Source: Chiloscyllium plagiosum (lineage: Eukaryota). From it: a stretch of DNA of 64,000 bases. Of this stretch, positions 10,715 to 48,689 are shown piece by piece. The notes beneath the pieces were generated by a model, which worked only from the letters and a program-made list of their open reading frames with translations, searched no databases and was not told the DNA's origin. Each line of letters begins with the position of its first letter. Within the stretch, counting starts at the first letter, position 1. A program made the translations under genes and the position numbers. The stretch spans positions 8,013,929-8,077,928 of the forward strand of contig NC_057759.1 in NCBI RefSeq assembly GCF_004010195.1, read 5' to 3'.

Positions 10715-10948
10715 ATAAAAGTCATGCAATGCCAGGTTATCATCCAACATGTTTACTTAGAAGTACAAGCTGTTGGAGAACTGCTCCTCCATCGGGCAGC
10801 TAGTGGGGCAGGATCATAGGACACTCTGTTCCTGACGAGAAGCAGTGCTCTGAAAACTTGTACTCCCAAGTAAACCTGTTGGACTATATCTTGGTATTGT
10901 GTGATTTTTAACTTTGTCTGCTCCAGTCCAACACTGGCACCTTCACAT
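10715..10948 (+). mobile_element. PLE-derived fold-back element (AGCT-hammerhead family), decayed
   Basis: Imperfect inverted arms; degenerate CTGACGA...GAAAACTT at 10832-10859; 3' tail CCAGTCCAACACTGGCACCTTCACAT shared with the 13949 copy. Confidence 0.7.
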
Positions 10949-11935
10949 CTTAATTAAGATGGGTGAATTCTGCAAAAAGTCCTTTTGTGCACAAAGGGTC
11001 TTAGAGGTACATTTGGCATAAGCATAGCAAATAAAAGAACATTGGCTGGGGAGAAGTAGGCACCAATAAGGGTACCCACCTGATCAGTCCCTGACCATAT
11101 TTCTCAACCCAATCCATTATCCATTCATTTTCAAAGTAAATCAGTTATAGTTTTCAGTTGGAGAGCTTACAGGTCAGTGGATAATTGGATCAGAAAGCAC
11201 AGATTTCAGTTCCAAGACTAAAGACTATTATTCTGTCCTTAGTTTTCCATTTCCATTTATCAATTGCCCATCCATACACACGTATGATGGAAAGTACCTG
11301 TTATGATTCGCCATTACAAGCAGTGGCAGTGCAGTAACTCCACTAGACATATCATATAATTATTGTTTGACAAATTTGCACCTGGCAATTTCTGCTAAAA
11401 ATCAAGAAAATAAACAGTTTAAAAGGGACAGGAAGTGTGTCGGTGTTTTTTAAAAAAAAAATTTAATGTTTTTAAATATTTTTAAAAATTAAGGTTAATT
11501 GAAGTGGTTGATGATGATTCTTATCTTCTGCATCAGGAGACTGCAGTTGGAGCCCTTCTCAGAGCTACACACTTGGATTACTGTCTTTCTGTTGATATTT
11601 AAACCTTTTTTGGTTGTCATAATAGACCCTGAGGCATTATTTTTGAAGAAAAGCAGGGAACCTTTTCCTGATGCACTGACCAATGTTCATCCCTTAACAT
11701 TGCGAACTTCAGTTCTCATTATAGTTTATTGCAAATTGGCTGTCCCCTTTCCCCAAATCGAAACAGTGATTGCACTTCAAGATGTATTGAACTGGTTGTA
11801 GAATGATATGGGCATCCTGGGGTTGTGAAAAGTGTTAAAAAGTTACTGTCTTCCTTTAAATTCCATCTGTAAGTATTAATGATATTTGAATGGAGTCTGT
11901 CAAGATTTACACAACGTATTAACTTGATCATTCAG

Positions 11936-12056
11936 GACGGTATTAGGGCTGCCAAGAGAAGCATTCAGGTGGATATCCAGAGTGCAGTTCACAAGATCTA
12001 CCAACAACTATCTGCTACCCTCGATCGGGCCTTGCAAGCAAATAAGCACCACATTG
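11936..12056 (+). CDS. HERC1: HERC1 exon 2, 121 nt, DGIRAAKRSIQ...ANKHHI
   Basis: ttcag|GAC ... ATTG|gtaagg; phase 0-1; frame continuous with both neighbours. Confidence 0.95.
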
Positions 12057-13948
12057 GTAAGGAGCTGAAGTGTTACATTAAAAACTGGAAAATTTGAGAT
12101 GCTGGTAATCATGGACTTTTCTTTCAAAAGGGTCAGCTCTCATCCTCCTTTGGTTTTCATCCCTTCTTTAGTGGTGCCATTATGTTTAGAAAAGTATAAA
12201 GTCAAAACTAAACACAATAATATATATAATTTATGTATATGGTTTTCTGTTAACGATAATACTTGTATGCAGTAAAATCTTGTTCAGTATCCAAATTCTG
12301 TATTCTGCTCAACACTTGCATGTCATTGACGCTGCTCTTAAATTGATTGGTATTTAATGTTCAAAATATTTTCTATTCTTCAAAATAAACTTTGTAAAAT
12401 GTACTGTAATGTAAATTCAGCATTACAGGCTTTTGTTTCAACAGCAGTGACTGCAGCTGAGTTTTAATAATTTGAACAATAATAAACTGTATATTCCTTT
12501 ACTTAGAATGGTTATAGCACAGGAGAGTAATTATGTCTGTCCCAGCTCTCTAAGAGCAACTCTGCTGGTTTCACTCCTGTGGCACTACAAAGTTTTCACC
12601 CTTCAAATGCTTATCGATTTCCTTTTGAAAGCTGTGATTGAACCTACCTCCATCACACTCCTCAGTAACTGGGCATGGTTCATAACAACCTGCTGTCTGA
12701 AAACACCATCTTTGATTCTTTTGCTTACTATGTTCAATTGGTGTGCTGTCGTTGTGGAACCTCCCACTAGTTAGAACTGTTTCTGTCTCTTGATTCAATC
12801 TACAACCATTATTTTCTGTGCCTCACACCCACGTCTTCTCCAAGGAAGACAGTCCTAGTTTCTTCGACCTGACCTCTAACAGAAATCATTCAGCTCTGGA
12901 AATATATTCATAAAACTTTCCTGCATCCTTTCTAAAGCCGTCACATCCTTCCTAAAGGGCAACATATTGAAGATAGTGGACACTGAGGCCAAATCTGTAA
13001 ACTGATTTCAAGATCCTTGCTTTTTAACTCTGTATTTATGCAATTCTTAATTATGTTCACATTTAAATCACTTTAACAGTTTGTCTTACCACCTTCAATC
13101 ATTTGTGCATGAATACTCCTGATGTCTCTATCTTTGCACTTCCTTTAGAATGTATAACCTTTGGTTAAATTGCTTCACTTAGTCCGTCATATAAGAATCT
13201 ATCAGTTCAATTCTGTATTAAATTTGTCACATTTACAACCATTGTATTAATCTGTTTGTGTTCTCTTGTCTATCACTATCCTCCTTATTGTTCAAGTTCC
13301 AAATGTGAATATCAAGTTCCAGTATTGAAATTTTGCCCTGTGCACCCAAGTCTAAATCGTTAATAAACATATACATGAAGACAACCGAGGCCCTAAGATC
13401 AGGCCTTGGTGAAACTCACCATATACCTCCTTCCTGTTTGAAGAACAATCGTCGACTGCTACTGTTTCATGCCACTCAGCCACTTAGTGCTCATACGGCC
13501 GCTCTGCTCAATCCATGGGCTGCAGCTTGCTTGCTTGCCTATTATGTGGCATTTCATCAAACACCATGCACATCGTATCTACATCATTATCCTCATAAGT
13601 GTTTTTAATCTTTTTCAAAAAAACTCAAATCGAGTTAGTTAACTTTCTTGGATTTCCTTGATTAATCCACACATGTGGAAGTGACTTAAGGTTTTGATCC
13701 TTAATATAAATTATGTAAGCTTTTCCACCACTTAGTTGGATTATCTGTAGTTGCTGAGTTCATCCTTACATGCTCTTGTTCAAAAAAGGAGTTGCTGATG
13801 ACTTTGGCAGCATCTTCTTGGTAAAAGAAAGTGCAAAGTACTCATTTATCACCTTGGGACATTCCTTTGCTTTAATGTGCATCAGTCCTTTATGGTCCCT
13901 GATTGATCCAACCTCTCCTCTTTCTACCCTTTTATTACTTAAGTATTA

Positions 13949-14168
13949 GATCAGAAGTCACATGACACTAGGTTAGAGCCCAACAGGTTTATTTGAAATC
14001 GCAAGCTTTCAGAGCATTGCCCCTTCATCAGGTGACATCTGGCCCCCTAATAAAGGGGGGCAACGCTCTGAAAGCTTGTGATTTTAAATAAACCTGTCGG
14101 ACTATAACCTGGTATTATGTGACTTCTGACCTTTTCCACCGCAGTCCAACATGGGCACCTTCACATTA
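13949..14168 (+). mobile_element. PLE-derived fold-back element (AGCT-hammerhead family)
   Basis: Inverted arms of about 80 bp; TSD TACTTAA(G/T)TATTA at 13936-13948 and 14169-14181. Confidence 0.8.
14000..14034 (-). ncRNA. Minimal hammerhead ribozyme motif (PLE type)
   Basis: Minus strand reads CAC-CTGATGA-A-GGGGC-AAT-GCTCT-GAAA-GCTT-GCG: intact core, helix II and palindromic AGCT helix III. Activity untested. Confidence 0.65.
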
Positions 14169-15730
14169 TACTTAATTATTAATAGAAGACTTTTGGGTTT
14201 CCTTTTTTGCTGGCTTTCGTGAGCATCATATATATGGGAATAGTTAATCAACCATGTCCAGTTTGAACCAGGACACCATCAGAACAACGTAGTACTCCCA
14301 TCATTAGTTTGTGGGATGTGGGTATACCTGTTTGCCCATGAGAATGTGGCGGTGAGCTGCCTTCTTGAACTGCTGCAGTCCATCTGATATAGAATTCATT
14401 GCAATCCCTTTTAGTCTGACACCACATAACAATACCTCTTACTTCTTACTCTTGGCCCACTACCTCTGCAATCTCTCGTACACCATGTTTTTCATTGTTA
14501 TCACTACGTTTTGGTTCCCATCCCTCTGCTAAAGTTGGTTTGTACCTCCCTGAAAGCAATAGCTGCTGTGATTTTGTTTGTGCTTAAGAAAGATAACTAT
14601 TAATATTCGATTCAGAGATGTGAATTGAAATCAAAGGGTGTGATTCATTAAACATTTCTTGATACTACAGTACAGATCATGAACAGAGTATTGAGAAATT
14701 ATTTTCTGAGGATTGTTCTTTTATGTGTGAACATATTCATGAAATACAACACAGATCTGCATCCCTAAAGGGAAAATATGTATTATTATTATTATAGTGG
14801 AACCTTTAAATGAGACTAAAACTTGGAAGTGAATAGGACTTTAAGTGATAGATCAAAATGAAGGGAAATATATATATATGTCAAAGTTTCTGACGTGCAT
14901 GCCTTTTTTCCCCTTTGCTCCTTGTCTAGTCTTAGAGCACTTGATTGCAATAACATTGTTTGTGTGCTTTAGCTATTCGCTCCCCCCCCCCATCAAACAA
15001 TAATTGAACCTCTTTTTGTTAATGATCACCATCCCACCAACATCCTGTTTGCCAGCTTGTTTCCAACATCTCATCACCTAGCGCACATTACAATCTCTTT
15101 CTTCCTTTCCCTCTTCCATTTCTGAAGGCACATTCACTCCAAAAAGCTATTTCCTTTTTGTGCCTGTTTTTCCCTTGTCCATATCAAACTTTCTGTTTGC
15201 CTCCTCCATTGCCCAAGGCTCCAACCACTCCCTTCACAAGAACACAACATTTTCTACAATACAATGCTCTTTTTTTTTTTAGTACAGTCACCTCTTCATT
15301 GACCAGTCTTCTTTTTTAGCTGAATTTTGAGTAGCTCATGGGATCAACTCCACGTATTGTTGTAACTCTGACACACATTTGGCCATTTGTCTGAACCACT
15401 CTGTGACCCCTAATTGTAGAGTTAGGTATTTTAAATTATAATTTGTTGTCTTCCCTCTTTGCTATGCATCTTGCATCTCAATTGCTTTCATTTGGGAGGT
15501 TTTTTTTTTCCCCTGATTTAGTTTCTCTAATGCCTCATATTGCCTAGTTCAGCTCCACTTTTATGCCAAATGCCTTTTCAGTGATTCTTCAGAATTTGTG
15601 CAGGATGGTTTATAGATTTTTTAAAGTGCCTACCCAAGGATGATTGAGCTCATTAAGTGGCCTTTTGAGGTTAATAGTGATCTGACTTGAACCAGATGGG
15701 TGTTCCATTCTGGAAAAGTAACATACTTTG

Positions 15731-16590
15731 TTGTGGTTCTGTTCGCCGAGCTGGAAGTTTTTGTTGCAAACGTTTCTCCCCTGGCTAGGCGACATCATCA
15801 GTGCTTGGGAGCCTCCTGCGAAGCGCTTCTTTGATGTTTCCTCCGGTGTTTATAGTGGTCTGTCCCTGCCGCTTCCGGTTGTCAGTTTCAGCTGTCCGCT
15901 GTAGTGGTTGGTATATTGGGTCCAGGTCGATGTGTTTGTTGGATGAATGCCATGCCTCTAGGAATTCCCTGGCTGTTCTCTGTCTGGCTTGCCCTATGAT
16001 AGTAGTGTTGTCCCAGTCGAATTCATGTTGCTTGTTGTCTGCGTGTGTGGCTACTAAGGATAGCTGGTCGTGTCGTTTCGTGGCTAGTTGATGTGTTATG
16101 AGTCCTCGGGGTCGCAGTAGTCTGGCTGTCAGTTCTGAGATGCTCCTGATGTATGGTTGATATCTGCAAGTAGTTGTGCTTTTTGGATGTAATCAGATTT
16201 ATCTAGGATGACCGTCATTCTGCCTTTATCTGCTGGTAGTATGATGAATTCGTCTGGGACAACACTACTATCATAGGGCAAGCCAGACAGAGAACAGCCA
16301 GGGAATTCCTAGAGGCATGGCATTCATCCACAAACTCCATCAACAAACACATCGACCTGGTCCCAATATACCAACCTCTACAGCGGACAGCTGAAACTGA
16401 CAACCGGAAGCGGCAGAGACAGACCACTATAAACACCGGAGGAAACATCAAAGAAGCGCTTCGCAGGAGGCTCCCAAGCACTGATGATGCCGCCTAGCCA
16501 GGGGACGAAACGTTTGCAACAAAAACTTCCAGCTCGGCGAACAGAACCACAACAACGAGCACCCGAGCTACAAATCTTCGCACAAACTTT
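15731..16590. mobile_element. Internally deleted Penelope-like element with about 300-bp inverted arms
   Basis: Perfect 12-bp TSD TAACATACTTTG (15719-15730 and 16591-16602). Minus-strand peptides IILPADKGRMTVILDKSDY, PYIRSISELTARLLRP and HEFDWDNTTIIGQA..REFLEAWHS (PLE RT and GIY-YIG C-terminus). Confidence 0.88.
16478..16517 (+). ncRNA. Minimal hammerhead ribozyme motif in a PLE terminal repeat (mirror copy at 15766-15804, minus strand)
   Basis: GCA-CTGATGA-T-GCCGCC-TAGCCA-GGGGAC-GAAA-CGTT-TGC: helix I GCA/TGC and ACGT palindrome; helix II has two mismatches. Confidence 0.6.
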
Positions 16591-16667
16591 TAACATACTT
16601 TGCTCACCAAGTTCAATTTAGGAATCTAGAGAAAGCAATATACAGTATTGACTGGTGTAATATTGAG

Positions 16668-18532
16668 GTTAGAGACAAAAGAACTTCAGCTGCTGGAATC
16701 CAAAATAGACAGACAGGAGGCTGGAAGGACACAGCAAGCCAGACAGCATGGAGATGGAAAAGTCGATGTTCTGGGTGTAACACTTCTTCAGGACATATTC
16801 ACTATTCCCCCCACCCCCCGACCCCGTCCAAAGGGCTCACATTCATACCCCTCCACCTCCACCTCAACAAATTCCAGATCCACCACAATGTGGAGCTGTT
16901 CTTCTGCCACCTCTGCCTCCGTGTCTTCTTTGACAAAAATTCCTAACCTCTCTCCGAAGACCCCTTTTCCCACTTCCCGCTCCTCTACTTGGTTACCCCA
17001 CCCGCCCTAGACCTGTTCATTGCAGACTGCCATTATGACATTGGCCATCTCAATTTCTCCACCGCCCCACCGATTCTAACCTCAACCCCTCCGAACATGC
17101 AGCACTCCACTCATTCTGCAACAACTCCCGCTTCACCCATCAAACTCGCTGACAAAGGCGAGTGTTAGTCTGGACAATAGACTTCTATGTTGCAGAGGCC
17201 GAACGCCACCTCTCCGACACCATGTCCTACCTCCCCATTGACCACAACCCCACTGTAACTCATCAGGCCAAAATCATCTGCACTGCTCATGCCCTCATTG
17301 CCTCCCTCTTCTGCCTCCAAACTCATAGTCCCCACCCCCACACCGGCCGGTTCTACCTGCTCCCCAAGACCCACAAGCCCAATTACCCTGGCCGACCCAT
17401 CATCTCGGCATACTCCTGCCCCACCAAACTCATCTCGTCCTATCCCGACTCTATCCTCTTCCCCTTAGTTCAGGCATTTCCCATTCGTGACACCAACCAC
17501 ACTGTCCACCTCTTCAGCAACTTCCAGTTCCCCGGACCTCAGCACTTTACTTTCGCGATGGACGTGCAGTCCTTGTACACATCCATACTCCACAGGGATG
17601 GACTCCAGACCCTCTGCTTCTTCCTCTCCAACATTCCCTTCCAGTCCCACTCCACCAACACCCCCCTCCGCCTCCCCGAACTGGTCCTCACGCTCAACAA
17701 CTTTTAACTCCTCCTATTTCCTCCAAATCAAGGGGTAGCCATGATGGATGGACCCCAGCTATGCTTGCCTCTTTTTAGGGTATATCAAACAGTCCCTCTT
17801 CAGTACCAACACAGGCACTGTGCTCCAACTCTTCCACCATTACATCGATGACTGCATCGGTGCAGTGTCCTGCACCCAGACTGAACTGGAGAAGTTCATC
17901 AACTTCCACTCCACCCTCAAATTCACCTGGGCCATCTTGGGCACCTCCCTCTCCTTTCTGGACCTCACCATCTCCATCTCCGTCGACAGTCTCCAGATCA
18001 ACATTTACTACAAGTCCACAGACTCCCATAACTACCTCCACTACACCTCCCACCCAGTATCCTGCCAGAACTCTATACCATTCTCACAATTCTTCCACCT
18101 CCGCTGCATCTGCTCAGACAAGGAGACATTCTGATCTCAAGCATCCCAAATGTCCCCCTATTCCGAACAACATGCTTTTCCTCCCTCTGTCACCCAGACA
18201 GCCCTCTGCCGCACTACCTCCAATCCCGTTCCACCTGCCTCTCCTCCAATCTAGTTTACTGCATCAGTTGCTCCCAATGTGGTCTACTCTACATCAGGGA
18301 CACTTGGCGTAAAGTTAGGGAACAGTTCACCGAGCATCACAGCTGGGCCCACAATGACCTCCCAGTGACCGCCCATTTTAATTCCCCCAACTACTCCCTT
18401 TCCAACATGACCATCCTTGGCCTCCTCCATTGCCACAAAGTCCTGAAGAAGGGTTCCACCTGAAATGTCAGCATCTCCACCCCCTAATGCTGCCTGGCTT
18501 GCTTTATTCTTCCAGCCTCCTGCCTATTTATA
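16668..18532 (+). mobile_element. Penelope-like retroelement, decayed RT plus GIY-YIG ORF with inverted terminal repeats
   Basis: RFYLLPKTHKPNYPGRPIIS, MDVQSLYTSI, YIDDC, VYCISCSQCG..YI; inverted repeats at about 16705-16794 and 18440-18530; TSD GTGTAATA(T/A)TGAG at 16655-16667 and 18533-18545. Confidence 0.92.
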
Positions 18533-18935
18533 GTGTAATAATGAGAGCCACTTAATAGCAGACAAAGCTAAAACTTTAACCAAAGTAAGGACAGAAAGAG
18601 AAACAGGTGAGTCAGATGATTGCATTATACATATTGTTTGTGTTTTTAAATTAGTTACTGAAATAGTTCCGTACTGTTTGGTTCAATTTTACTAAACCCT
18701 GTCTGCACGTCACCTGAAACCTGTTCTTATCTGAAACCTCTTCTTGATCTTGACTTGCCATGTGACCATCACCAGTGCTAAATTAAGTACCTTACATTAT
18801 TTTTATACTGGATGACAATGCAAACTATGTTTGAAAAATGTAAAATGTATGTAATATTTTAGTCATTGTCTATCACACAATATAAAATCTAGAGGTATTG
18901 TTACAGATAAATATTGATTTTATTCCTGTTTACAG

Positions 18936-19173: not shown

Positions 19174-19249
19174 GTAAGCAAAAGTTTAAGTTTTCTGTCA
19201 CATGAGTAATGATTGTATTGATCAATGCAAATGAGAACTAAAATGCTAT

Positions 19250-20320: not shown

Positions 20321-21240
20321 CCCTCTCCCCTCCTCCACACGCGGGTCCTCGTTCCCTCTCCCCTCCTCCACACGCGGGTCCTCGTTCCCCACTCCCCTCC
20401 TCGGCGCGCGGGCCCTCGTTCCCCACTCCCCTCCTCGGCGCGCGGGCCCTCGTTCCCCACTCCCCTCCTCGGCGCGCGGGCCCTCGTTCCCCACTCCCCT
20501 CCTCGGCGCGCGGGCCCTCGTTCCCCACTCCCCTCCTCGGCGCGCGGGCCCTCGTTCCCCACTCCCCTCCTCGGCGCGCGGGCCCTCGTTCCCCACTCCC
20601 CTCCTCGGCGCGCGGGCCCTCGTTCCCCACTCCCCTCCTCGGCGCGCGGGCCCTCGTTCCCCACTCCCCTCCTCGGCGCGCGGGCCCTCGTTCCCCACTC
20701 CCCTCCTCGGCGCGCGGGCCCTCGTTCCCCACTCCCCTCCTCGGCGCGCGGGCCCTCGTTCCCCACTCCCCTCCTCGGCGCGCGGGCCCTCGTTCCCCAC
20801 TCCCCTCCTCGGCGCGCGGGCCCTCGTTCCCCACTCCCCTCCTCGGCGCGCGGGCCCTCGTTCCCCACTCCCCTCCTCGGCGCGCGGGCCCTCGTTCCCC
20901 ACTCCCCTCCTCGGCGCGCGGGCCCTCGTTCCCCACTCCCCTCCTCGGCGCGCGGGCCCTCGTTCCCCACTCCCCTCCTCGGCGCGCGGGCCCTCGTTCC
21001 CCTCTCCCCTCCTCGTTGCGTGGGTCCTCGTTCCCTCTCCCCTCCTCGGCGCGCGGGCCCTCGTTCCCCACTCCCCTCCTCGGCGCGCGGGCCCTCGTTC
21101 CCCACTCCCCTCCTCGGCGCGCGGGCCCTCGTTCCCCACTCCCCTCCTCGGCGCGCGGGCCCTCGTTCCCCACTCCCCTCCTCGGCGCGCGGGCTCTCGT
21201 TCCCTCCCCCCACGTCCTCTGTGCGCGGGCCCTAGTCCCC
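20320..21240. repeat. GC/CpG-rich minisatellite, 34-bp unit TCGGCGCGCGGGCCCTCGTTCCCCACTCCCCTCC, roughly 25-27 copies
   Basis: Period read directly (unit starts at 20401 and 20435); most units identical, edges degenerate. Confidence 0.97.
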
Positions 21241-21639
21241 TCTCCCTCCTCTGCATGTGGGTCATCGTTCCCTCTCACGGTCAGCGTGCAGGCCCGCGTT
21301 CTCTCTCCCCTCTCCCCTCCTCCGCGCGCAGGCTCCCATTCCCTCCTCAGCACGCGAGCCCTCGTTCCCTCTCCCCTCCTCAGCGCGTGGGTCCATGCTC
21401 CCTCTCTCTGCCTCTCCATCGTGCTCATGTTGTCAGCCCACCTACTCCCCCAACCCCCCCCTCCCCCAACCGTAACTTCGTCCCCATCGCCCGACCCCTC
21501 TGCCCTGCATGTACCGTTGGTCCCCAACCCTCCTTCGTGCTCTCTCTCCATTGTGCACTGGCCTTCTGTCCCCCTCCATTCCACCCCACCATGCACATGC
21601 CCCTCAGTCCCTACTCACTCCCGACTCCGCTGCACACGT

Positions 21640-30824: not shown

Positions 30825-31383
30825 ACTTCTCTTCGGCCTCCACTGTTTTGCTCCCGATGTATCTGTCATGTGCTCCTTTTTTCCTTTTTATTCAACCTTG
30901 GATATTCCAAGATATCCATGCTTCTCTGGCGTTGTTGCTTCTATACATCACCCTAAAGGGAACATGTTGAGCATGTACCCAATTCCTTTTTAAGTACCTC
31001 CCACTGTTCTGCTGTTGATCTAGCTACAAGCAGCTGTTTCCAAGTATAATTTGGCCAGATCCTGCCTTATTTTAATAAAATCTGCCTTCCCCCAATCCAA
31101 ACCCTTTTTTTGTAGACTATCTTTGTCCTTTTCCAAACAAACATAAATGATATGGGTTCTGAGAAAGGGTCACCAAACTTGAAAAGTTAGCTTTGATTTC
31201 TCTTCACAGATGTTGCTGAGCTTTTCTAGCAATTTCTGTATTTATTTCTGAGTTATAGCACCCGTCGGTCTTTTGGTTTGAATCTCCTATTCCTCTTGCT
31301 GATTGATGTTTTTCCTCAAGGATAGCTAATGGTTATGCTGTATAGGGATAATCTAGCAGATTGTGTCATATTTTGTTGGGCAG

Positions 31384-31539: not shown

Positions 31540-32545
31540 TGAGTCATAGAGTCCGACAGCACAGAGACAAGCCCTTTGGCCTAAACAGTCCACGCCGGCC
31601 AAAATATCCATATATGCGAACCCCATTTCCCTGTCTTGGCCCAAATCCTTTTCAGGGTTTAGACCAGAGTGGTGCTGGAAAAGCACAGCAGGTCAGGCAG
31701 CATCCGAGGAGCAGGAAAGTTGACGTTTCGGCCAAAAGCCCTTCATCAGGCCCAAAACGTCGATTTTCCTGCTCCTCGGCTGCTGCCTGACCTGCTGTGC
31801 TTTTCCAGCACCACTCTGACCTAAACTCTGGTTTCCAGCATCTGCAGTCCTCACTTTTGCCAAATCCTTCTAAACCTTTCCTACGCATGTATTTGTCCAA
31901 ATGCCTTTTAAATGTGCTGGCAGCTCATTCCACATGTGTATCACCCTCTGTTTAAAAAAAGTTGCCCCTCAGGTTCCCTTTTATTCTTTTCTCTCTAACC
32001 TTAAACTGATGGCCTTTAATCCACAATTCCCCAACCCTGGGAAAAAGTGAGTACATTCACCCTATCCATGCCTCTCATGATGTTATACATTCGTATAAGC
32101 TTTCCCCTCAGTCACCTACACTGTAAAGAAAAATAGCTTGTCTAACTTCTCCTGTCACGCAGACCCTTGAGTCCTAGCAACATCCTTGTAAATGTCTTCT
32201 ACGTTCTTTTCAGTTTAATAACATCCTTCCTGTAGCAAGGTGACCAAAACTGAGCACAATACTCCAAGTGCAGCCTCACCAATGTCCTGTACAACTGCAA
32301 CATAACTTTCCAACTTCTATACTCCTTAAGGCCCTATCATTCACCGTGAAATTCCTACCTTAAATAGGCTTTGCGGAGTGAAAGACCTCACACTGGTCTA
32401 TATTAAACTCCATTTGCCATTTCTTGGCTCACTTCCACAGCTGATAAAGGTCCTGCTGCAATTTCTGGTAACCTTCCTCATTGTCCGTGATACTGCCTAT
32501 TTTCGTGTCATCTGCCTTGTACATACTCATCCAAATCATTGATAT
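31540..32545 (-). mobile_element. CR1 LINE 3' part, with a PLE hairpin inserted in its 3' UTR
   Basis: GAGTCATAGAGTC tail; the reverse complement of CACAATACTCCAAGTG encodes HLEYC. Confidence 0.8.
31651..31859 (+). mobile_element. PLE-derived fold-back element (ACGT-hammerhead family)
   Basis: TSD CCAAATCCTT (31641-31650 and 31860-31869); inverted arms; minus-strand CCTGATGAAGGGCTTTTGGCCGAAACGTCA at 31721-31750; tail CCAGCATCTGCAGTCCTCACTTT. Confidence 0.85.
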
Positions 32546-33169: not shown

Positions 33170-33780
33170 TCGAGGAAACATAACAGTAATTTCTGGAAAA
33201 GCACAGCTAACGTAGTAGCATCTGTGGAGAGAAATTGGAGTTCCACAAGACAAGTATTCCCTCCCCTCCCTTGTCAGCCTTCCACAGGGACCCTCCTGTG
33301 TGAGACCCTGGTCCACCCGTCCTTCACTTCCAACCTCGCCTGCCACACACACACACAACCCCAAGCTGGCAACAAGAAACCGTCATTGCCATCTAAAGTG
33401 CCCTGCCGCCGTCTGCACCCATGTGCAGAAAAGTTAGGGTTTGAGATGCCCCGTCTCCTTGCTGCAAACCCTATAAACCAGGCCTTATTATCACATGGTC
33501 TGCTATTACACACAACTCGTTGTTAGCCACTAACAGTCCCCATTAGTAGCTATTCACCTCCTGGCCAGATCATTGCCTAATACTTTGTCTGTCCAACTGT
33601 TGTTCTCTCTCTTTGAGCTCTATCTCCACCTATCATTTAATCCTTATTCCCTTCCCGCTCCCTATCTTCTTCATATAAACCAACATTTTCCTAATTAACA
33701 TAACTGATTTTTCTCCACAGATGCTGCCAGACTTGCTGAACTATTCCAGCAATTTCTGTTTTTGTTTCTGATTTAGCTCA
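33170..33780 (+). mobile_element. Old PLE-derived fragment with inverted ends
   Basis: CTGGAAAAGCACAGC...CATCTGTGGAGA at the left mirrors TCTCCACAGATGCTGCC...TTCCAGCAATTTCTG at the right; related fragments lie near 31155-31280 and 62580-62705. Confidence 0.55.
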
Positions 33781-33804
33781 TCCTCTATTGAAATGATGCT
33801 TAAA

Positions 33805-35330: not shown

Positions 35331-38022
35331 GGGGGTGGGTGATCAGTCAGAAATCATGGTACACATCGGTACCAATGACAAAACCAAGAAAAGGGATGAG
35401 GACCTAAAAAGCGAATATAAGGAATTAGGGTAGAAGCTAAAAGGCAGGACGATAGAATAGTAATCTAAGGATTGTTATCAGTGCCATGGGCTAGTGAGGC
35501 TTGGAACAGAGAGCGAGTGCAGCTGATCATGTGGCCGCAGAGCTGGTGTAGGAGTGAGGGCTTCAGATATGTGGATCATTGGGATACCTTCTGGGGAAGG
35601 TGGGACATGTACAAGAAGGAACGGTTGCACCTGAACTGGAGGGGCAGCAATATCCTGGGCGGGAGGCTTACAAGGATTGCTTGGCAGGGGGATAGGAGCT
35701 ACAGATCACAGGATGCAATAGCCGGTGAACAGGCAGATACAGTATGCAAAGAATCTGTGAGGAAGGATAGATAGTTGATAGGGCAAAGTTACAGTCAGTG
35801 TGATGGGTTTAAGGTGTCTATTTTAACACAAGAAGTATCAGGAATAAGGGTGATGAACTTCGAACATGGATAAGTACTTGGAGCTCCGATGTTGGGGCCA
35901 TTACGGAGACTTGGACATCACAGGGGCAGGAATGGTTCTTGGATGTTCCGGAGTTTAGATGTTTCAGAAGGAATAGGAAGGGAGGTAAAAGAGGTGTAGG
36001 GTGGCATTGCTAATCAGGGATAGTATCACAGCTGTAGAAAGGTAGATCGTCGAGAAGGGTTTGTCTACTGAGTCAGTATGGGTGGAAGTCAGAAACATTA
36101 AATGAGCAGTCACTTTTTTGAGAGTTTTCTATAGGCCCCCCCAAAAGCAACAGAGACATGGAGGAGCAGATTATGAGATAGATTTTGTAAAGGTGCAGAA
36201 GTAACATGGTTGTTGTCATGGGTGACTTCAACTTCCCTGATATTGATTGGAACTTCCTTAGTACAAATAGTTTGCATGGAGCATATTTTGTCAGGTGTAT
36301 CTAGGAAGGATGTCTATGCCTATGTAGATAGACTGACTAGAGGAGGGGGGGGGCATATTGGATTTGAAGGTTGGAGGTCAGATATCAGGTCTGTAGGAGG
36401 CAGAGCATTTCAGTGATAGTGATCACAACTCCCTGATCTTTATTATAGTCATGGAGAGGGATGGAGCAGATAGGAAGGTATTTAATTGGGGGTGTGTGAG
36501 AATTACAGTGCTATCCAGCAGGAACTGTGGAGCATATATTGGGAGCAGACCAGGGAAATGCACAACAGAAATGTGGAGGTTGTTTAGGAAACACTTGCTC
36601 TGAGTGCTAGGTAGGCTTGTCCCACTGAAGCAAGGAAGGGATGGTAAGGTAAAGGAACCTTGGATGACAAGAGATGTGGCACATCTAGTCAAGAGGAAGA
36701 AGTAAGCTTACTTAAGGGTGAGGAAGCAAGGATCAGACAGGGCTCTAGAAGGTTACAAGGTAATCAGGAAGGAATTGAAGAATGGCCTTAGGAGAGCTAG
36801 TAGGAAGCATGATGAAGCCTTGGCAGTAGGATTAAGGAAAATCCCAAGGTGTTCTATATTTATGTGAGTAACAAGAGGATGACCAAAGTGAGGGTAGGGC
36901 CAATGAGAGATATTGGAGGGAACTTGTGCCTGAGGTCGTTCGAAAAGGTTGACGTTAAGAAGGAGGATGTGCTGAAAATTTTGAAAAACAGGTATGTTCC
37001 CTGGGCCAAACGGGATATAGTTGAAACTTTATTGCTGGAACAGCACAGCAGGTCAGGCAGCATCCAGGGAACAGGAGATTCGACGTTTCGGGCCTGTGCC
37101 CGAAACGTCGAATCTCCTGTTCCCTGGATGCTGCCTGACCTGCTGTGCTGTTCCAGCAATAAAGTTTCAACTTTGATCTCCAGCATCTGCAGACCTCACT
37201 TTCTCCAAACGGGATTTACCCAAGGTCACTATGGGAAGCGAGGGAAGAGATAGCTGTGCCTTTGGCAATGATTCTTGTGCCCTCACTGTTCACCGGAGTG
37301 GGACCAGATGATTGGTGGTTGGCAAATTTTATTCCCTTATTCAATAAAGGGAATAGGGACAACCCTGTGAATTACCGATAAGTCAATCTTACTTTGGCAG
37401 TAGGCAAATTATTGGAGAGGGTTGTGAGAGACAGGATCTATGATTATTTCAAAAGCTTGGTTAGGGAGAGTCAGTATGGCTTTTTGAGGGGCAGGTCATG
37501 CCTCACAACCCTTAGTGAATTCTTTAAGGATGTGACAAAACACATTGATGAAGGTAGAACAGTGGATGTGGTGTATGTGGATTTTAGCAAGGCATTTGAT
37601 AAGGTTCCCCATGGAAGCTCAATGAGAAAGTAAGGAGGCATGGGATACAGGGAAATCTGGTGGTCTGGGTACAGAGTTGGCTGGCCCATAGAAGACAGAG
37701 GGTGGTAGTAGATGAAAAGCATTCAGCCTGGAGCTCGGTGACCAGTGGTGTTCTACAGGAATCTGTTCTGGGTCCTCTCGTCTTTGTGATTTTTAGAAAT
37801 GACTTGGATGAGGAAGTCGAAGGGTGGGTTAGTAAGTTTACCAAGTACACAAAGAGTCAGATATATTAGGGACATTTAAGTGACTCCTGCAAAGGCACAT
37901 GAATGATAGTAAAATGAAGAGTATGTAGGTTAGTTTGATCTCAGAGTAGGATAAAAGATCAGCACAACATCGAGGGCCAAAGGGCCTGTGCTGTGCTGTA
38001 CTGCTTTACATTCTGTGTTCTA
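35331..38022 (+). mobile_element. CR1 LINE with an ORF1 esterase (SGNH-like) remnant and an internally deleted ORF2
   Basis: MVHIGTND and GFRYVDHWDTFWGRWDMYKKERLHLNW (ORF1); YVDFSKAFDKVPH (RT); same subfamily as 6560-9378. Confidence 0.9.
37017..37204 (+). mobile_element. Very young PLE-derived fold-back element with a perfect 75-bp inverted repeat
   Basis: Arms 37019-37093 and 37098-37172, loop CTGT; TSD CCAAACGGGAT (37006-37016 and 37205-37215) inside a CR1 ORF2. Confidence 0.92.
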
Positions 38023-39554: not shown

Positions 39555-39794
39555 TTCTATATAGTTAAAGAAAATAGAGGTAATGAAGGTACCTGTGTGG
39601 GAGTATCTCGCTGGCCTGTGCACGATTTCAACCATCGGACTACCTCAGACATGTGGCTGTACAGGGCTTACAGTGGTAATCTGTACCACAATGGGGAGCA
39701 GACACTCACCCTCTTCAGCTTTACTCAAGGAGACTACATAACATGTGTGTTGGATATGGAGGCCAGGACCATCTCATTTGGGAAAAATGGAGAG
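39555..39794 (+). CDS. HERC1: HERC1 exon 9, 240 nt, SPRY domain FYIVKENRGNEGTCVGVSRWPV...ISFGKNGE
   Basis: ttttctag|TTC ... GAG|gtgaac; SPRY motif GDYITCVLDMEARTISFGKNG. Confidence 0.97.
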
Positions 39795-41249
39795 GTGAAC
39801 TAATCTAAATATTCTCTGTTTGTAAACCCAGTTATAGCAAACCAGTTTAGAGTAGAAATTCTTCACTATCCACAATGTGCCAAAGTGGATGTCACTTTGA
39901 TCTTGTTATGAGAAAAAGGGTCTTCTTACCCTGTTACAACTGATAAAGTATACATCAGTCGATTCGATTTTTAGGATTTCACTTTTTACAGGCACTTATT
40001 CAGCAAAATTAAAAATTCTGTCCTTACACAGAAGGAATTAAATTTAAACTTGTGAAATACAGTGCATTCCTTATTACCTGTTCCATCTGAATGAAGCTCT
40101 GATTTTAAACGATGTACATCAATGATAGAGCAGATAAAGCGTATTTATGTTGAAGGGTTAGCATTAAGATAAGTCCTTGGTTATCCATCAACTCTGAGTA
40201 TTAATGTATTTCTGGGTTTTCTTATTTATCTTAGGAATGAATGACCAATTGACACAACAAAATTTATTTTAAAGTGTAATTTATTTAAAAAAAACACTGT
40301 CTAATGAGAATTAGACTATAAACAAAAAGCAAGGGCTGAGTTTTCTAGGATTGTTATGAATCACCTGGGGGAGGCCGTAAACCAAAATAATTAAATTGAC
40401 TGAATGATTATCAACAAGGTTTTATAGATTTTACTGTAATATGAATTAGATTTGGTGCAACTTGCATGTTAATACAACAAAGAGTAGTCTTTCTACAATA
40501 TGTTGACATCACTCGCAGGACAAAATGGCATGATATGTTTATACAGTTTCAAAGTATGTCTTCATTCATGAAGTGAGGACTCAATCTGATAACAGTTAGC
40601 ACCTTTGACTTTCATACTTTGATATCATTAGAAAGGCATACTTCTATGAATCATCTCACCCTCAGGTCAAGACAATGTTGTTGGTGTAGCTTTAAGAGTT
40701 TCTTTTCAACTGACAAACCAATAATGCCCTGGTTCAAGGTTTGACAACTTCTGGGGGAAAAAAACAGCTCTTTAGCATCTCTGTGCTATTCAAACAATTT
40801 ACCATATGTTAGAACTTTTTTATTCACCTGCCTCCTTTCTGGCTAAGCAGAAACCTAATCTCACTAAGAGTGAATTTCTTCTCCCCCAAGAATTCTCAGG
40901 GTCTCTCTTTCTGTTTCTGTATGTTTTCTCTGTGTTCGCACCTGTTTCTTCACACTCCAGCATCTCTGCTTTTAACTCTTTGTAGCTTTCTTTTAATGGT
41001 GATGCGACGTCTGGATTTAACTAACTTCTTCTTGGTACTGCTTCCAGGTAGAAGGTCACCAGATCTCAGACTAGTATTTATTCTCCAAGAAAATTGCAGT
41101 TGATCCCTTTTGCAATTGCTATAGATTCTTGACATCCTTTTCATAACATTCTTGTAATCAATTAAATTCCATGGATATTTTGCAGAAATTTTAAATTTTC
41201 TTACTGTGCTACTTCTGGGTCAAAGTTCATCACACACCCCAATTCTTTG

Positions 41250-43309: not shown

Positions 43310-44611
43310 GTGAACATTTTTTCTAATTGAGCAATCCCACTGAGAGATTAGTGTTCGAGCATAGACATTTTTTCTAATGCCGTGTGCATTATATGATGAA
43401 AACATGTCAAATTTCAAATTGGTTTTATATAGTTCTTATCGGGTGTATTGCTGCAGACTACTGCACTAATCTGTTTCAGCTAGTAGCAACCCCAAAATAA
43501 CATAGTAGATTTTCTAAGCAGCAAGGAACATCTTAATTCAATCCAATTGTTGCTAAAGAGGTTTGGATCAATGGAATATAAAATGGGACATGTTGTCCAA
43601 GAAGAGCCCTCCCTCTTCTCATTGTGGTTTGTATTGTGCATTGGGTTAGCACCTTCTAAATGCTAAAAAATTCCAAATCATTTCATAAGAGAGTTATTAA
43701 ACAATACTTTGCCACCTGGCTACAAGAGATATTAAGATTGGTAACTAAAAATGGTCCAAAAATTAGTTTTGAGGAGCAACTTAAAGGAGAACTTGTTTGG
43801 CAGAGGGGTTAATGAGATCTAGATAGATGAAGGCACAGCTATTGTTGTAACTGGAAATTGGGGATATCCTGATAATCATCTGAAGTGAATTCAGGTTCTA
43901 TTTGGAGTTGCTATTGGACATAATTACAGAAAATGTTTAGCAGATCTGGCAGAATTCCTAATTAACAATTGGAGTGTCCTGACTGAATGGATTATCTCAT
44001 AATATGTCTGATTTTCAAGACAAAGAAGGAAACGATCATTGACATCACCTTGCTTCCCCTTCTAATGGCCTGTTGGCTCTTACCACACCACCTTCCTTCC
44101 AATGGCCTGACTCTCCCATTGCACTTAACTATGGTGTGACAATGCTGCTCCTTTAACAAGGTTATGATGGCCTTGTTTTTTTAAGAGAGATTATACAACA
44201 CAGACACTGAAAGTCTAAGTTGAAGGGTTTTAGGGCCAATTTGATTAAAGCTAACCGATACTGCCTCAGGCAGAATGCTTGCAAGTTTAAAAAAAACACT
44301 TGTACAATGAAAGAGGAGTGGCCAGTTCTCTCAGGTCAGCTTTTCTCTGATTTGATTTGCAGACTGGCTACTTACTGAAACCAGTCAGGCTGTGTTTGAA
44401 GCTGCTAGACCCAAAGAAACAGGTCCATACTGGTCTTCTCTCTCTGACATTTCTCCTGTAAGAACTTATGTTTGATTGTACCTTTTGTGCCAAGGGATGT
44501 TTATGGGGATTGTTGCAAGTATTGGGAACAGCATAATTAAGGTGGGATAATCTGTTGGGACAGTTAAGTTTATTCGATATTCTGTTCTCTTTTTTGTTTG
44601 TGAATCATCGT

Positions 44612-44851
44612 GGGCGGCACGGTGGCACAGTGGTTAGCACTGCTGCCTCACAGCGCCAGAGACCCGGGGTTTCCTCCGGGTGCTCCGGTTTCCTCCCACA
44701 ATCCAAAAATGTGCAGGCCAGGTGAATTGGCCATGCTAAATTGCCCGTAGTGTTAGGTAAGGGTTATGGGTGGGTTTCGCTTCGGCGGGTCGGTGTGGAC
44801 TTGTTGGCCCGAAGGGCCTGTTTCCACACTGTAATGTAATCTAATCTAATC
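44612..44851 (+). mobile_element. HE1-type SINE with an internal deletion, inserted in the 5' LTR
   Basis: Intact head, B box missing (GACCCGGG joined to GTTTCCTCCGGG), (TAATC)n tail; absent from the 3' LTR. Confidence 0.9.
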
Positions 44852-46754
44852 ATTCGGTAATCTTGCAAAACGTTTTGTTTTGTTTAAAACTAAGTAGTTT
44901 GACCAGTTGCACCCCTCTTGGAATATCCATGTTACACCTACTTAAAACAATGGGCAAAGTTAGGGTTTGGGCAACGTTCTTGAAATGTTTTCAGGGGGTC
45001 GGGCCTGGTCCATAATAGATTGGGACTTCTTGTGGGTTTTGTTCTATAGTTCTGATTTGCTATTAGGATTGTTGGACTCAAAGGAAGTGAGTGGCAGGTC
45101 TTTTGTTCTGGGTATTGATTTCAATCGGTTTAAACAGTGCTTGCGATAGCAATAGCTCTTTCAGTCATCAAGAGTTTTCTGGGGTAGAAGAAATGACTTT
45201 GAGGGTTTTGCAAAAGGCAATTAAGGCCAAACTGCTGGGATTAGCAGACAAGCTAGAGTCGGAGTTACCTCCTTCTGTGAGGTAATTACATTAACGCTCA
45301 GCATTTAAATTTTCTGGAAATGGCATCAGAATCTTTAGAGATGGCTAAAATTCAGTTGAAAATGAAGCAGCTTAAGTTAAAGGCAAACGACAAGGAAAGG
45401 GCAACAGAAATGAAACAGTTTGAATTATGATTAAAATCAGAGGAGAGAGAAAGAGGGAGAAAAGAGAGGAAAGGAAGAATGAGAGGGGAGTTTGAATTTC
45501 AGAAATTGGCTCTTATACAGGAGTTCAATAATCCCCTTTCTGAAGTAGTGAGAACTCGTGTGGAAGAGCAGAGAGTTAAAGTGGCAAGATTAGCAGCTGA
45601 AATGGCTGATGATTATGAGTTGGCCCATAAATCAAAGTTTATCTTCCAAAATCGATTTCAATCCGTGAGAAACAGAAGTTTGTGAAATTGAGAAATCCTC
45701 ACGTGGAAAGGGAAAGGTGGACCTTGGTGAAGATCATAAAGATAACTTGCCACAAGATAAAAAAGAAACTCTTGAAAGAAAAAGAGAAGTTGAAAAGCTC
45801 TGGTGTTCTCACTGCAATAAAGTAAGCCACATGAAATAATAGTGTTCGGAAAAGCATTGGAAAGCCAGATATAGGAAAATAAGATAAGCCAGTGAATTTT
45901 GCTGGAATGGTAATGGAAAGCACGGTGGAGGCTAGAAAGCTGCACCAGAATGTACAAGCTAGTCAAGAGGTTGGTTAAGGGGGAAGTGCCAGATAATATT
46001 AAACCATATACCTGCAAAGGTAAAGTTTACGCACATTGGGCAGGAGTAGAAGATAAGAGATTAAGAGATACAGGATCCTCTCAATCTGTGATGTTGAAAG
46101 ATGAGGGGATATGTACCTCTGAAGGACTATTGCCAGAAAAGGTGCTAGTAACAGGAATTCACAGTGAGACAAGAAGCGCTCTGTTATGTAAAGTGAGGTT
46201 GGAGTATCCAGTGAAGAGTGGAGAATTCGAGGTAGGAGTGCTGGACAAACACTCAGCTCCAGGAGTACAATTTGTCCTCCTAATGATACAGCTGGGTCAC
46301 AGGTAGCTGTGGTCCATACTGTGGTTGAAAAGCCAGTGGAAAGTTAGGCAACTCAATTATCGCAGGACACATATTTCTGGACGGCACGATAACGTGGTCA
46401 CTAAGTCACGAGTTGAAACAGGAGAGATCAAAGAGTACAGATAAGAAAGTTGAAGTTGAATTAGTAGAGACCCTGTTTGATTAGATGGTTGACACAAACA
46501 AGGAACCAATGGATGACACAGCTGACATCTTTCGCTCACACAAATCAATTGAGTTACAGCAGAAACCTGAAAATTTAAAGTAATTAAATCAAATGGCATA
46601 CACAGGAAAAGAATACAAATGTATCCCTGAATGTTATTATCTTAAAAATGATGTCTTAATGACGAAATAGAGACCATCACGCATTCAGGCAGATGAGAAA
46701 TGGGCCAAAACTGAGGCATTCGCAAGTACTAAGATAGGCTGAAATAAAATGTAG

Positions 46755-46948
46755 GAGAAAGTGAGATGCTAGAGGTCAGAGTCGAGAGTGTGGTGCTGGA
46801 AAAGCATAGCAGGTCAGGCAGCATCAAAGGAGCAGGAGAATTGATACTTCATCAGGAATGAAGAAGGACTTATGCCCAAAACGTCGATTCTCTTACTCCT
46901 CGGATGCTGCCTGACCTGCTGTGCTTTTCCAGCACCACTTTCGACTCT
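46755..46948 (-). mobile_element. PLE-derived fold-back element (ACGT-hammerhead family) inside the LTR element
   Basis: TSD GAAA(T/C)AAAATGTAG at 46741-46754 and 46949-46962; inverted arms; partial core CATTCCTGATGAAG on the minus strand. Confidence 0.82.
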
Positions 46949-48689
46949 GAAACAAAATGTAGTAGTGCATGTTTGCATGATTATTGTCAATGTACTGTAT
47001 ATGGATGTTGTAGTACCCTAACAATTTGAGATTAAAGAGTTTTAAAATTAAGCCATCTTTCGATATTAATGGTTCATCTCTTTTTTAAGGGGTGTGACGA
47101 TGCTGCCCCTTTAACAAGGTTATGGTGTTCTTGTTTTTTTTTCAAAGAGTTGTAAAAGACAGAGACTCTGAAAAATCTAAGTTAAAGGGTTTCGGGGCCA
47201 ATTTGATTGTAGTTAACAGATACTGCCTCAGGCAGAAGACTTTCAAGTTTAAAAATTGTACAATGAAAAGGGAGTCGCCAGTTCTCCCAGCTCAGCTTGG
47301 CTCTGGGTTAATTTGTTTTTTTTGCAGTCTGGCTTTTCACTGAAAGCAATCAGGCAGTATTTGAAGTTGCTGAACCCAAACAAGCAGGTCCATGCTGGTC
47401 CTCCCTCTCTGACATCTCTCCTGTAAGACGCTGTGTTTGGTTCTACCTTTTGTGCCAAGGGATATTTATGGAGATTGTTGCAAGTATTGGGAACAGCATC
47501 ATTAGGTGGGGATGGTCTGTTGGGTCAGTAGGTTAAGTTATTCGCTATTGTGTTTTTTTTTTGTGTTTCATTCAGTAATATTGTAAGTAAATTCTGTTTT
47601 GCTTAAAACTAAGTGGTTTGACCTGCTGCATCCCTCCTAGAATATCCGTGTTACACCTGCTTAAAACATCTAACAAAGTTAGAGTCTGGGCTACCTTCTT
47701 GAACTGTTTTGTGGGTATCTAGCCTGGTCCAGTATAATAGCTGGTCACTCTCTTATCTCCACTGATAGCCTAATTCTCACCCTGACTATCAAAACCCGCT
47801 CCCCAAGCCTTAGTTAATTTGACTCTCGCTTCTACCTTCCAATGCTTATTCTGCCTAGTCACCACCACAGCACCAGACCTGAGGCTAATTGAAGCCATTA
47901 ATGTTGCACTGCTGTCTACTGTTCCAAACACAAATTTGTCTCTTCTGCATTTGCCACAACTAGTGACCCTATCAGCAGAATTTAAAGGAGTAGTAGTTCT
48001 TGCTGGTTATAGTTAACTGTTTGCCTGCGGAGTCAATACCATCAAACAGCAATAGTCCTATTGTAGCAGATGTAATTTTGGGATGTCTACCACCCTATTA
48101 TTTCATTATCAAACAGACTTAACAAATCAGAAGATGTGTGCTGGTATAGTTTAGCGCAGCTGAGAACGGAAATTAAAAGGTTAACAAGAAGGATTTGCTT
48201 GATGCAGGTGAGTGAGATTAGAGTTTAGAAAAAGAAAATCCATGAGCAGTTCGAGCTTAGTGAAGCTAGTGGCCAGTGAAAAGCTGATGTTGTACCTAAG
48301 AGTGAAGACTGGAATGAAAATTCTAGAGTCCATCTGATCATACACCCAGAAAAGGAGGAGGATGACCAGAAATGGAGCAATCATTGAAACAGTCTACAAA
48401 AGAGAAGTTCTTGAGACAGAATTTCAAGATTGCATTAGCAGAGATGAAGAATTGATAGTCTTTGTGAATGGTAAGGCAGTTTGAAGAATTACTGTATTAA
48501 CACTTGTGGGGAATTATTAAGAAATCCCTTAAGTTCTATATTGCTGGATTCTGCATTCAATGTTTTAAGTATACTGTGGGGTCCAAGATTGCAATTTGTT
48601 ATCCATCTTTAAGACATTTTAATTCTGTGTGCGACAATATAACTTGTAAATGTATTGTTGATTATATTTCTGTTCTAGTTTTGTACAAT

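Follow-up and report, generated by a model that had tools for sequence, protein, structure and literature searches.

The 64,000-nt stretch of Chiloscyllium plagiosum DNA analysed here (the window) carries the gene HERC1, as the sequence-only reading had proposed; two exon matches confirm it and place it on the + strand, whereas searches gave no confirmation of exons further upstream. Seven insertions have the form of 5′-truncated ends of Penelope-like elements (PLEs), each with an inverted arm and a tail, and an inverted, 5′-truncated neighbouring copy is present in all seven. All seven had been listed as fold-backs and all are real, but the one at 16668 is no short fold-back: it is the inverted 5′ arm of a 1.87-kb element and pairs with 18440-18531 at 76%. 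The seven longest short-range inverted-repeat pairs of the window (I1-I7) were assigned to six of the seven named loci. Convincing target-site duplications of 12-16 nt, with one mismatch and scores of 10-14, flank six of the seven insertions; out of 1941 random flank pairs, no more than 0.5% scored as high. The duplication flanking A1 (9 nt, score 7) is no better than chance, being matched by 11% of the random pairs. B has a defined tail at one end, and a one-sided extension is seen in A1, A2, C, D1, D2 and D3 as well. Families A, D and E lack a coding remnant, and five of the seven copies measure only ~190-240 bp. The four families distinguished earlier are present as listed, although C and D have a common downstream repeat (60-67% identity) and a fifth related family, E, had been missed.

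Table. Positions of the HERC1 exons, the insertions and their hammerhead remnants in the window
Feature	Position	Strand	Details
HERC1 exon, SPRY domain	39555..39800	+	match to 4qt6_A, E 1.4e-52
HERC1 exon	51128..51682	+	92% to a Scyliorhinus torazame protein; named HERC1 matches in salmonids and chimpanzee
A1, old short fold-back, family A	10713..10948	+	arms ~10716-10789 / 10837-10910, 70% alike; extension to ~10948
A1 hammerhead remnant	10832-10859	+	both boxes intact; palindrome and helices broken
A1 hammerhead remnant	10795-10767	-	four core changes
A2, short fold-back, family A	13949..14168	+	13-nt duplication, 13936-13948 / 14169-14181
B, young Poseidon-type fold-back	15728..16590	+	arms 15728-16026 / 16244-16555, 94% alike; duplication at 15719 / 16591
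B hammerhead motif, - arm	15766..15804	-	boxes intact; closing C of helix II deleted
B hammerhead motif, + arm	16478..16517	+	both boxes, palindrome and 3-bp helix I intact
C, 5′-truncated, decayed PLE, probably Neptune-type	16668..18532	+	13-nt duplication (16655 / 18533)
C inverted terminal repeat	16668-16794
C inverted-arm hammerhead remnant	16762..16794	-	retains 5′ box and helix I, with a broken GAAA box and palindrome
C RT remnants	16827-18221		align to proteins with RVT_1
C GIY-YIG remnant	18233-18427		aligns to proteins with GIY-YIG
C 3′ terminal repeat	18440-18531
C 3′-end hammerhead remnant	18440..18472	+	retains both boxes and the 4-bp helix II, with a broken palindrome and helix I
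E1, decayed solo terminal repeat, family E	31154..31260	+	hammerhead remnant
D1, short fold-back, family D	31653..31859	+	12-nt duplication (31641 / 31860)
Old family-E element	33173..33775	.	inverted arms 33173-33235 / 33707-33769; hammerhead beyond recognition
D2, perfect 75-bp palindrome, family D	37019..37204	+	duplication at 37006 / 37205
D3, short fold-back, family D	46755..46946	-	tail on left; 16-nt duplication (46739 / 46947)
E2, second decayed family-E copy	62577..62700	+	hammerhead remnant

Element B is truncated and internally deleted, and carries a GIY-YIG C-terminal coding remnant in both arms that matches a Chiloscyllium punctatum protein at 82%. The zinc-finger linker before GIY-YIG is missing from its relatives P0099 (80-82% identical) and the full-length P0152 and P0213, and by these linker-free relatives family B appears to be of the Penelope/Poseidon clade type. 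In the + arm, helix II has lost its second pair through a change at 16490 that is peculiar to this copy, and the predicted cut lies after 16514. An ATG at 16487-16489 opens a reading frame running through the tail, while the motif also overlaps the end of the endonuclease frame. The tail comprises 35 nt (16556-16590) and is bounded by two sets of ends of related sequences, one at 16590 (148 contigs in the DNA run X1, 185 in X10 and 88 reads in X21) and the other at 16555/16556 (23 and 41 reads).

The relatives of element C show RVT_1 and GIY-YIG above the Pfam cut-offs. Its linker is deleted in the window copy, whereas a CX2-5CxxC zinc-finger linker is present in the best full-length relatives, P0086 and P0090. 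Pfam did not recognise the broken PLE fragments directly, all five being without a match at the cut-off. The inverted arm begins 3 nt before the hammerhead core. Beyond 16749, where C-related loose ends come from 327 and 402 contigs and from 29 reads, the majority letters bring back the GAAA box, helix I and the palindrome, with an agreement of ~0.68. With B joined to a Poseidon-type GIY-YIG C-terminus and C to a probable Neptune-type RT-GIY-YIG, the proposed origin of the insertions from several PLE lineages is upheld. Since family A has no coding link, its status as a PLE rests on anatomy.

Among the short copies, the - arm of A2 (14031-14003), antisense to HERC1, comes closest to the whole motif: it has both boxes, the palindrome and a 5-bp helix II including two G-U pairs, with one mismatch in helix I. 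In the A2 + arm, the 5′ box is altered at two places. The - arm of D1 keeps both boxes, but at the junction the 5′ strand of helix I is missing; the + arm holds the 3′ half only, with G12 changed. The axis of the D2 palindrome is the 4-nt loop of helix II, and this copy has no CUGANGA box on either strand. D2 sits inside a CR1-type LINE remnant. In D3, the - arm has its 5′ box but helix II and GAAA are deleted directly after it, and each box of the + arm has one change. The remnants in E1 and at the 3′ end of C had been absent from the earlier list.

No copy holds a complete hammerhead (0 of 14 arms). A strict descriptor, demanding an intact core, helix II of at least 3 bp, a palindrome and helix I of at least 3 bp, found no match in the whole window; with one core mismatch allowed, it gave one unrelated match against 0.05 expected from 60 shuffles. 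Both core boxes are kept in six of the 14 arms (10832+, 14031-, 15801-, 16481+, 18443+ and 31749-), each of which has a helix or palindrome defect, and the core letters are retained at 137 of 153 positions. None of the four ribozyme sequences reconstructed by eye occurs as a single copy, each being a merge of two arms or loci. The common CUGANGA/GAAA core holds at the family level but not in every copy, in that 37017 has no CUGANGA, 46755 no arm with two boxes and the 16668 arm no GAAA. Nor is helix III always a palindrome: it is intact in 10 of the 13 arms that keep the 3′ half, or in 11 of 15 when family E is counted. The suggestion that repeat annotation might overlook these ribozymes was correct, with no copy flagged by Rfam: the 64 kb gave no match at the gathering score, and the six matches at E<=10 in 10600-18700 included no hammerhead. 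In none of six isolated arms was the hammerhead the lowest-energy fold, which is expected for the class and was not counted as evidence.

At the family level, conservation of the core holds for B and partly for C. For a 531-nt stretch, each of the two DNA runs X1 and X10 contained ~13,000 related contigs, so abundant are these families. In family B, the core, helix I and the palindrome have no position at which the related sequence of either run shows other letters at a share of 20% or above. Within the 40-nt motif, the places that do reach this share, all included in the variability list, are N7, one base each of loop II and of the internal loop, position 17 (either U or C) and the copy-specific 16490; at the last of these, more than 99% of related sequence restores the helix II pair. 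Given that ~9% of nearby positions are variable, the 13 invariant core positions are not significant by themselves (~0.3, a hand estimate). Because reading frames run across the motif, some of this conservation could be due to protein coding; in the ATG frame, changes at two variable places are synonymous. The CUGANGA and GAAA boxes with an NUH cut site are found at the family level for B in related contigs and for A and D in the window arms; family C has the 5′ box in both window arms and the 3′ box in related contigs. For families A, D and E, the motif is known from window arms only (4, 6 and 2 arms).

The claim that helices I and II differ in sequence and yet stay paired is true by family, with helix I covarying; no single arm holds the complete motif. 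Within families, 2.48 of 3 helix I pairs form (29 combinations), as compared to 1.32 between families (121 combinations), and the within-family pairing ranks first among 120 family permutations; the arms were anchored by hand, and the 5′ flanks D1L, D3R and A2R, which seemed to derive from the junctions, were omitted. Every family also forms helix II, from sequences that differ between families, and in the best A2 and C arms its closing pair is G-U. The arms were anchored by coordinate, since the core boxes fell out of register when 12 of them were aligned with MAFFT.

The whole picture has already been described for vertebrate PLEs. Minimal hammerheads were reported in the terminal repeats of metazoan PLEs by Cervera and de la Peña (2014; PMC4209133), among them fish Poseidon and Neptune elements and those of coelacanth, Xenopus and reptiles. 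In the parts of that article drawn on here, they agree with ours in the type I topology, the extra base between positions 9 and 10.1, the G10.1-C11.1 pair, the palindromic 15.2-16.2, the short helix I and the several consensus families per genome, and also in occurring mostly as single truncated copies, some in opposite-strand pairs 100-700 bp apart. Helix II, in contrast, is shorter here in C and D (4 bp) and internally mismatched in B. We found no mention of a shark host in those parts of the article or in two of its supplement files. The present families thus extend a described feature, the minimal hammerhead of PLE terminal repeats, to shark Poseidon-type and probably Neptune-type elements, and show that Rfam misses these motifs.

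The anatomy likewise has precedents. In the material used from Craig et al. (2021; PMC8557442), matched by Arkhipova et al. (2013; PMC3846280), units consist of an inverted pLTR, a 30-40-bp tail and an 8-10-bp duplication. Our copies resemble them in 5′ truncation, the neighbouring inverted copy, the optional tail of 30-40 bp at one end, the short duplication, palindromes at the inversion junction and an ORF start within the terminal repeat and tail. They differ in that five of seven have no coding remnant at their ~190-240 bp, and in duplications of 12-16 nt (one mismatch allowed) against 8-10 in the rotifer. PAc, the green anole Poseidon (Frangieh et al. 2024; PMC11167929, in part), shares with family B the Poseidon type, two preferred 3′ ends that define the tail, and inserted copies holding sequence upstream of the cut. 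In B, helix II begins at the ATG, and the predicted cut follows 28 nt later (26 in PAc); the two ends of the B tail lie 69 and 104 nt past the ATG, as compared to 111-118 for the start region in PAc. However, PAc is intact and has been assayed, whereas B is a truncated, internally deleted relic.

Taken together, the insertions are very probably end pieces of at least three PLE lineages with mirror arms, in which the terminal repeat holds the known minimal hammerhead; mutations affect every copy and have likely left it inert. Judging by the PLE literature and by the anatomy seen here, the GIY-YIG endonuclease of the element would nick the target, and reverse transcription would begin in the tail, ~40-100 nt downstream of the predicted cut site. 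It would then halt early, a second, inverted copy would be joined, and the 12-16-nt duplication would be left. Since all 14 arms reach upstream of the predicted cut and none starts at it, we infer that the template was uncleaved or re-ligated RNA. For cleavage, the motif may need either to dimerise through the 4-nt palindrome or to be helped by the element protein, in active tandem-copy transcripts elsewhere, while the inserted copies presumably decay neutrally and leave the HERC1 pre-mRNA uncut.

The short A, D and E units might instead represent an independent non-autonomous family, mobilised by PLE proteins from a retrozyme- or SINE-like RNA starting at the hammerhead, rather than random truncations. 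Indeed, 11 of the 14 arms start inside the motif or within ~36 nt upstream of the first core base, with only the two B arms and the C 3′ arm extending further, and the inverted arm of C starts immediately before the core. According to a 2026 preprint, the retrozymes of animals descend from terminal repeats of PLEs, and non-LTR retrozymes occur in one chondrichthyan genome (10.64898/2026.07.22.740005); these are, as here, non-coding, PLE-derived and of type I. They are, however, head-to-tail tandem units with a complete hammerhead each, whereas our copies are single, head-to-head and incomplete, and none of the 12 tandem-repeat rows in the window is a head-to-tail array of these units. The start points vary between copies, D2 and one D1 arm beginning within helix II without a 5′ box; the coding element C bears the same terminal repeat as D; and the depth of B-related reads declines steadily in the upstream direction, without a break at the motif. 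We therefore regard independent units as rather unlikely. The motif could also be kept as a structural or coding signal, such as a protein-binding site, a start-codon context or a reverse-transcription stop, without catalysis even in active copies. In agreement with this, the B motif overlaps two reading frames, the RNA reads of X21 show no piled ends and, in the part of the anole study considered (PMC11167929), mutating the core does not abolish insertion in vitro, and the cut site has no RNA-seq ends mapped to it. The same study reports core-dependent, protein-assisted cleavage with partial rescue by C3G/G8C, position 17 varies between U and C only and N7 freely, as catalysis predicts, and X21 is a single-cell poly(A) library, poorly suited to show cut ends. 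A purely non-catalytic role thus seems unlikely.

That the hammerhead likeness is a by-eye artefact, with chance motifs in ordinary hairpin repeats, would fit the empty strict search, the silence of Rfam and the merged sequences quoted earlier. It is hardly credible given that five families, with helix sequences of their own, have both boxes in corresponding positions, in elements chosen by inverted arms and duplications; helix I covaries as well, and thousands of related contigs restore the full motif of family B, for which the artefact reading is already contradicted. It is also very improbable that any of the intronic copies acts as a ribozyme, perhaps a co-opted one, in cutting or regulating the HERC1 pre-mRNA. 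Three two-box arms do lie on the HERC1 sense strand (10832, 16481 and 18443), and family-related RNA reads exist, mostly in element sense (X21; one read in X22), a bias that internal priming on A-rich sequence could cause and that is no proof of element transcription. Yet all three arms have broken helices or palindromes, are predicted to be locked in fold-back duplexes (0.69, 0.94 and 0.86) and have no intact same-family partner on the sense strand. In a related species, the site of B is probably empty (one contig), and the retention of core letters is about what neutral decay leaves in copies 73-84% alike. Sense motifs are predicted to pair outside the motif with a mean probability of 0.57-0.94 in six of seven elements and 0.27 in D3, and because they would lie mostly within long fold-back duplexes, cleavage of HERC1 pre-mRNA appears unlikely. 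As no copy is intact, the copies are likely inert relics. The window copies, end pieces of PLEs, are thus ribozyme remnants rather than working ribozymes in HERC1 introns, and HERC1 gains no ribozyme.

Beyond the genome, a pattern scan of viral contigs found no motif. Thirteen metagenome matches were rejected, being alike over 22-25 nt only with unrelated flanks, and scans of prokaryote genomes gave none and then six, which were judged to be chance from their titles alone.

Given that the families are so abundant, their junctions could test the role of the PLE hammerhead in transposition. D2 turns on loop II, and arms start in or just before the motif (11 of 14) and never at the cut site; on these grounds we tentatively suggest that the hammerhead fold might set where reverse transcription arrests, with helix II as the snap-back primer that builds the mirror arm. 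If so, the ribozyme motif would have a second, non-catalytic job in PLE integration, for which shark genomes would offer a very large natural test set.

All seven fold-back insertions named from the sequence exist: each has two inverted arms, and six of the seven have flanking duplications. The inverted-repeat pairs I1–I7 (within 600 nt) correspond to six of the named loci. The seventh, at 16668, belongs to a 1.87-kb element, of which it forms the inverted 5′ arm; its pairing partner, at 76% identity, is 18440–18531. In six elements the duplications are 12–16 nt long with one mismatch, a score that no more than 0.5% of 1941 random pairs of flanks reach; A1 has a 9-nt duplication, the score of which was matched by 11% of these pairs. 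A one-sided extension is present on every element. That of B is 35 nt long, and the ends of related contigs and reads fall at 16590 and 16555/16556. PMC8557442 and PMC3846280 describe the same layout for endonuclease-bearing Penelope-like elements (PLEs).

Insertions, terminal-repeat families and HERC1 exons in the window
Feature	Position	Strand	Remark
A1	10713–10948		
A2	13949–14168		
B	15728–16590		
C	16668–18532		
D1	31653–31859		
D2	37019–37204		
D3	46755–46946		
Hammerhead remnant of C, 3′ end	18440–18472	+	Directly past GIY-YIG remnant; links family C to PLE protein
Family E	31154–31260 (E1), 62577–62700 (E2), 33173–33775		Fifth terminal-repeat family, related to C and D
HERC1 SPRY-domain exon	39555–39800	+	Match to solved structure 4qt6_A, E 1.4e-52
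HERC1 exon	51128–51682	+	92% identity to Scyliorhinus torazame protein; matches proteins named HERC1

D1 is nested in a dispersed SINE-like repeat (stretch 31600–31900) and D2 in a CR1-type LINE remnant (stretch 36980–37300), and both are therefore younger than their host repeats. One contig of a related species (DNA run X10) covers 16591–16735; its match ends exactly at the B boundary, past which it continues for 890 nt with no match to B. This single contig suggests that B is absent at this site in the related species (probably an empty site), and that B is younger than C.

The C element retains RT remnants (16827–18221) and a GIY-YIG remnant (18233–18427). RVT_1 and GIY-YIG were both found in two of the four full-length relatives scanned, and the zinc-finger linker typical of Neptune, present in full-length relatives, is lost from the window copy. 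B retains an endonuclease C-terminus with 82% identity to XP_072420853.1, and this alignment continues across the hammerhead motif, placing the motif at the same position in a second shark. The relatives of B lack the linker, as in Penelope/Poseidon. Judged by the linker and the best hits, C would be Neptune-type and B Penelope/Poseidon-type. The element proteins have their nearest relatives in the bamboo shark Chiloscyllium punctatum.

A downstream repeat is common to C, D and E (D to C, 60–67%; E2 to C and D, 53–64%), although E1, which is more decayed than E2, aligns poorly to it. A and B are related neither to these families nor to each other, and there are thus five families in three lineages. 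The sequence-only reading had counted about four; the four that it listed stand, but the unlisted E makes a fifth. The old E element (33173–33775) encloses about 470 nt that carry no assignment and, unlike the 14 arms studied, its left arm seemingly starts near the predicted cut site.

As single copies, the ribozymes are degraded. None of the four sequences quoted earlier exists, as each merges two arms or loci, and a strict hammerhead descriptor gave no matches in the 64 kb. Both boxes, CUGANGA (5′) and GAAA (3′), are kept in 6 of 14 arms, with a helix or the palindrome broken in all six, and the core proposed for all seven loci is incomplete at 37017, where the 5′ box is missing. Core letters match at 137 of 153 positions (16 arms, E included), a count that is inflated by anchoring the arms on the core and that is about the neutral-decay expectation, independent copies being 73–84% alike. 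The suspicion that repeat annotation may miss such ribozymes was borne out, in that an Rfam search returned no hammerhead.

At the family level, the hammerhead motif is upheld. Two DNA and two RNA runs were aligned to 16300–16830 at 80% likeness, yielding 13,753 (X1) and 12,961 (X10) related contigs from DNA, and 582 reads (X21) and 1 read (X22) from RNA. In X1 and X10 alike, the list covers every tallied place with at least 20% other letters; in X21, by the tallies, five rows lie outside the list. The 40-nt B motif has only five variable places: N7, position 17 (U/C), one base each in an internal loop and in loop II, and 16490; at this last place, the base restoring helix II is present in >99% of related sequence. 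The motif overlaps an ATG frame that is open through the tail, as likewise in the anole Poseidon element, and coding constraint is therefore mixed into this conservation. The ATG within the hammerhead starts a 34-codon frame across the tail (16487–16590, +), with which the Poseidon ORF probably begins, and the B endonuclease frame terminates at a stop codon within helix II.

In C, GAAA, helix I and the palindrome are all re-established by the majority letters past 16749 (agreement about 0.68). When three junction-derived 5′ flanks were left out, 2.48 of the three inner helix I pairs were formed within families, versus 1.32 between families, and the true family matching ranked first of 120. For families A, D and E, the motif is known from the window copies alone.

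Earlier work on vertebrate PLEs already describes the motif, its grouping into families and the pairs on opposite strands. Literature listings yielded no paper on shark PLE hammerheads, and neither "shark" nor "Callorhinchus" occurs in two supplement files of PMC4209133. A 2026 preprint (10.64898/2026.07.22.740005) reports PLE-derived retrozymes in one chondrichthyan, and the supplements of this retrozyme preprint may list these families.

According to PMC4209133, such PLE motifs show no cleavage as monomers and weak cleavage as dimers. In PMC11167929, the anole motif is cleaved only with the element's own protein and is dispensable for insertion in vitro, and reverse transcription begins at tail sites. 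Here, sequence upstream of the predicted cut is present in 14 of 14 arms, from which we infer that the RNA template for insertion was uncleaved or re-ligated. Copying may have stopped early, followed by addition of the inverted arm. The hammerhead hairpin may be the stop and snap-back site: the start of 11 of 14 arms lies within the motif or no more than about 36 nt ahead of it, and in D2 the palindrome has loop II as its axis, its perfect 75-nt arms being separated by 4 nt. However, the numbers are small, short fold-backs were the criterion by which the loci had been selected, and B read depth has no step at the motif.

After insertion, the two arms of each element would pair together. The sense motifs are predicted to pair outside the motif with a mean probability of 0.27 for D3 and 0.57–0.94 for the other six elements, and such pairing with the opposite arms would make cleavage of HERC1 pre-mRNA by these copies unlikely. 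The RNA reads had no position with piled-up molecule starts or ends, for which the poly(A) single-cell library (X21) is ill suited. Among X21 reads of family B (16300–16590), one orientation is several-fold commoner, as expected of element-sense RNA; this bias may reflect element transcription or internal priming.

The window, which is shark DNA, spans part of HERC1 (+ strand), and D3 is flanked by the two verified exons. Upstream of this exon pair are the six remaining elements, among open frames at about 5651, 11873, 18911, 22552, 23562, 31326 and 34315, which are putatively HERC1; two checks of this identity yielded no support for these frames. The HERC1 region also contains a GC-rich 34-bp minisatellite (20321–21272; 28 copies, 95% matches) and, downstream of it, a decayed 30-bp array (21786–22220). 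D3 lies between the copies of a two-copy 214-nt repeat (44351–44564 and 47316–47529; 84%, about 3 kb apart), which also encloses open frames at 45431–46303 that presumably resemble LTR-retrotransposon gag-type remnants.
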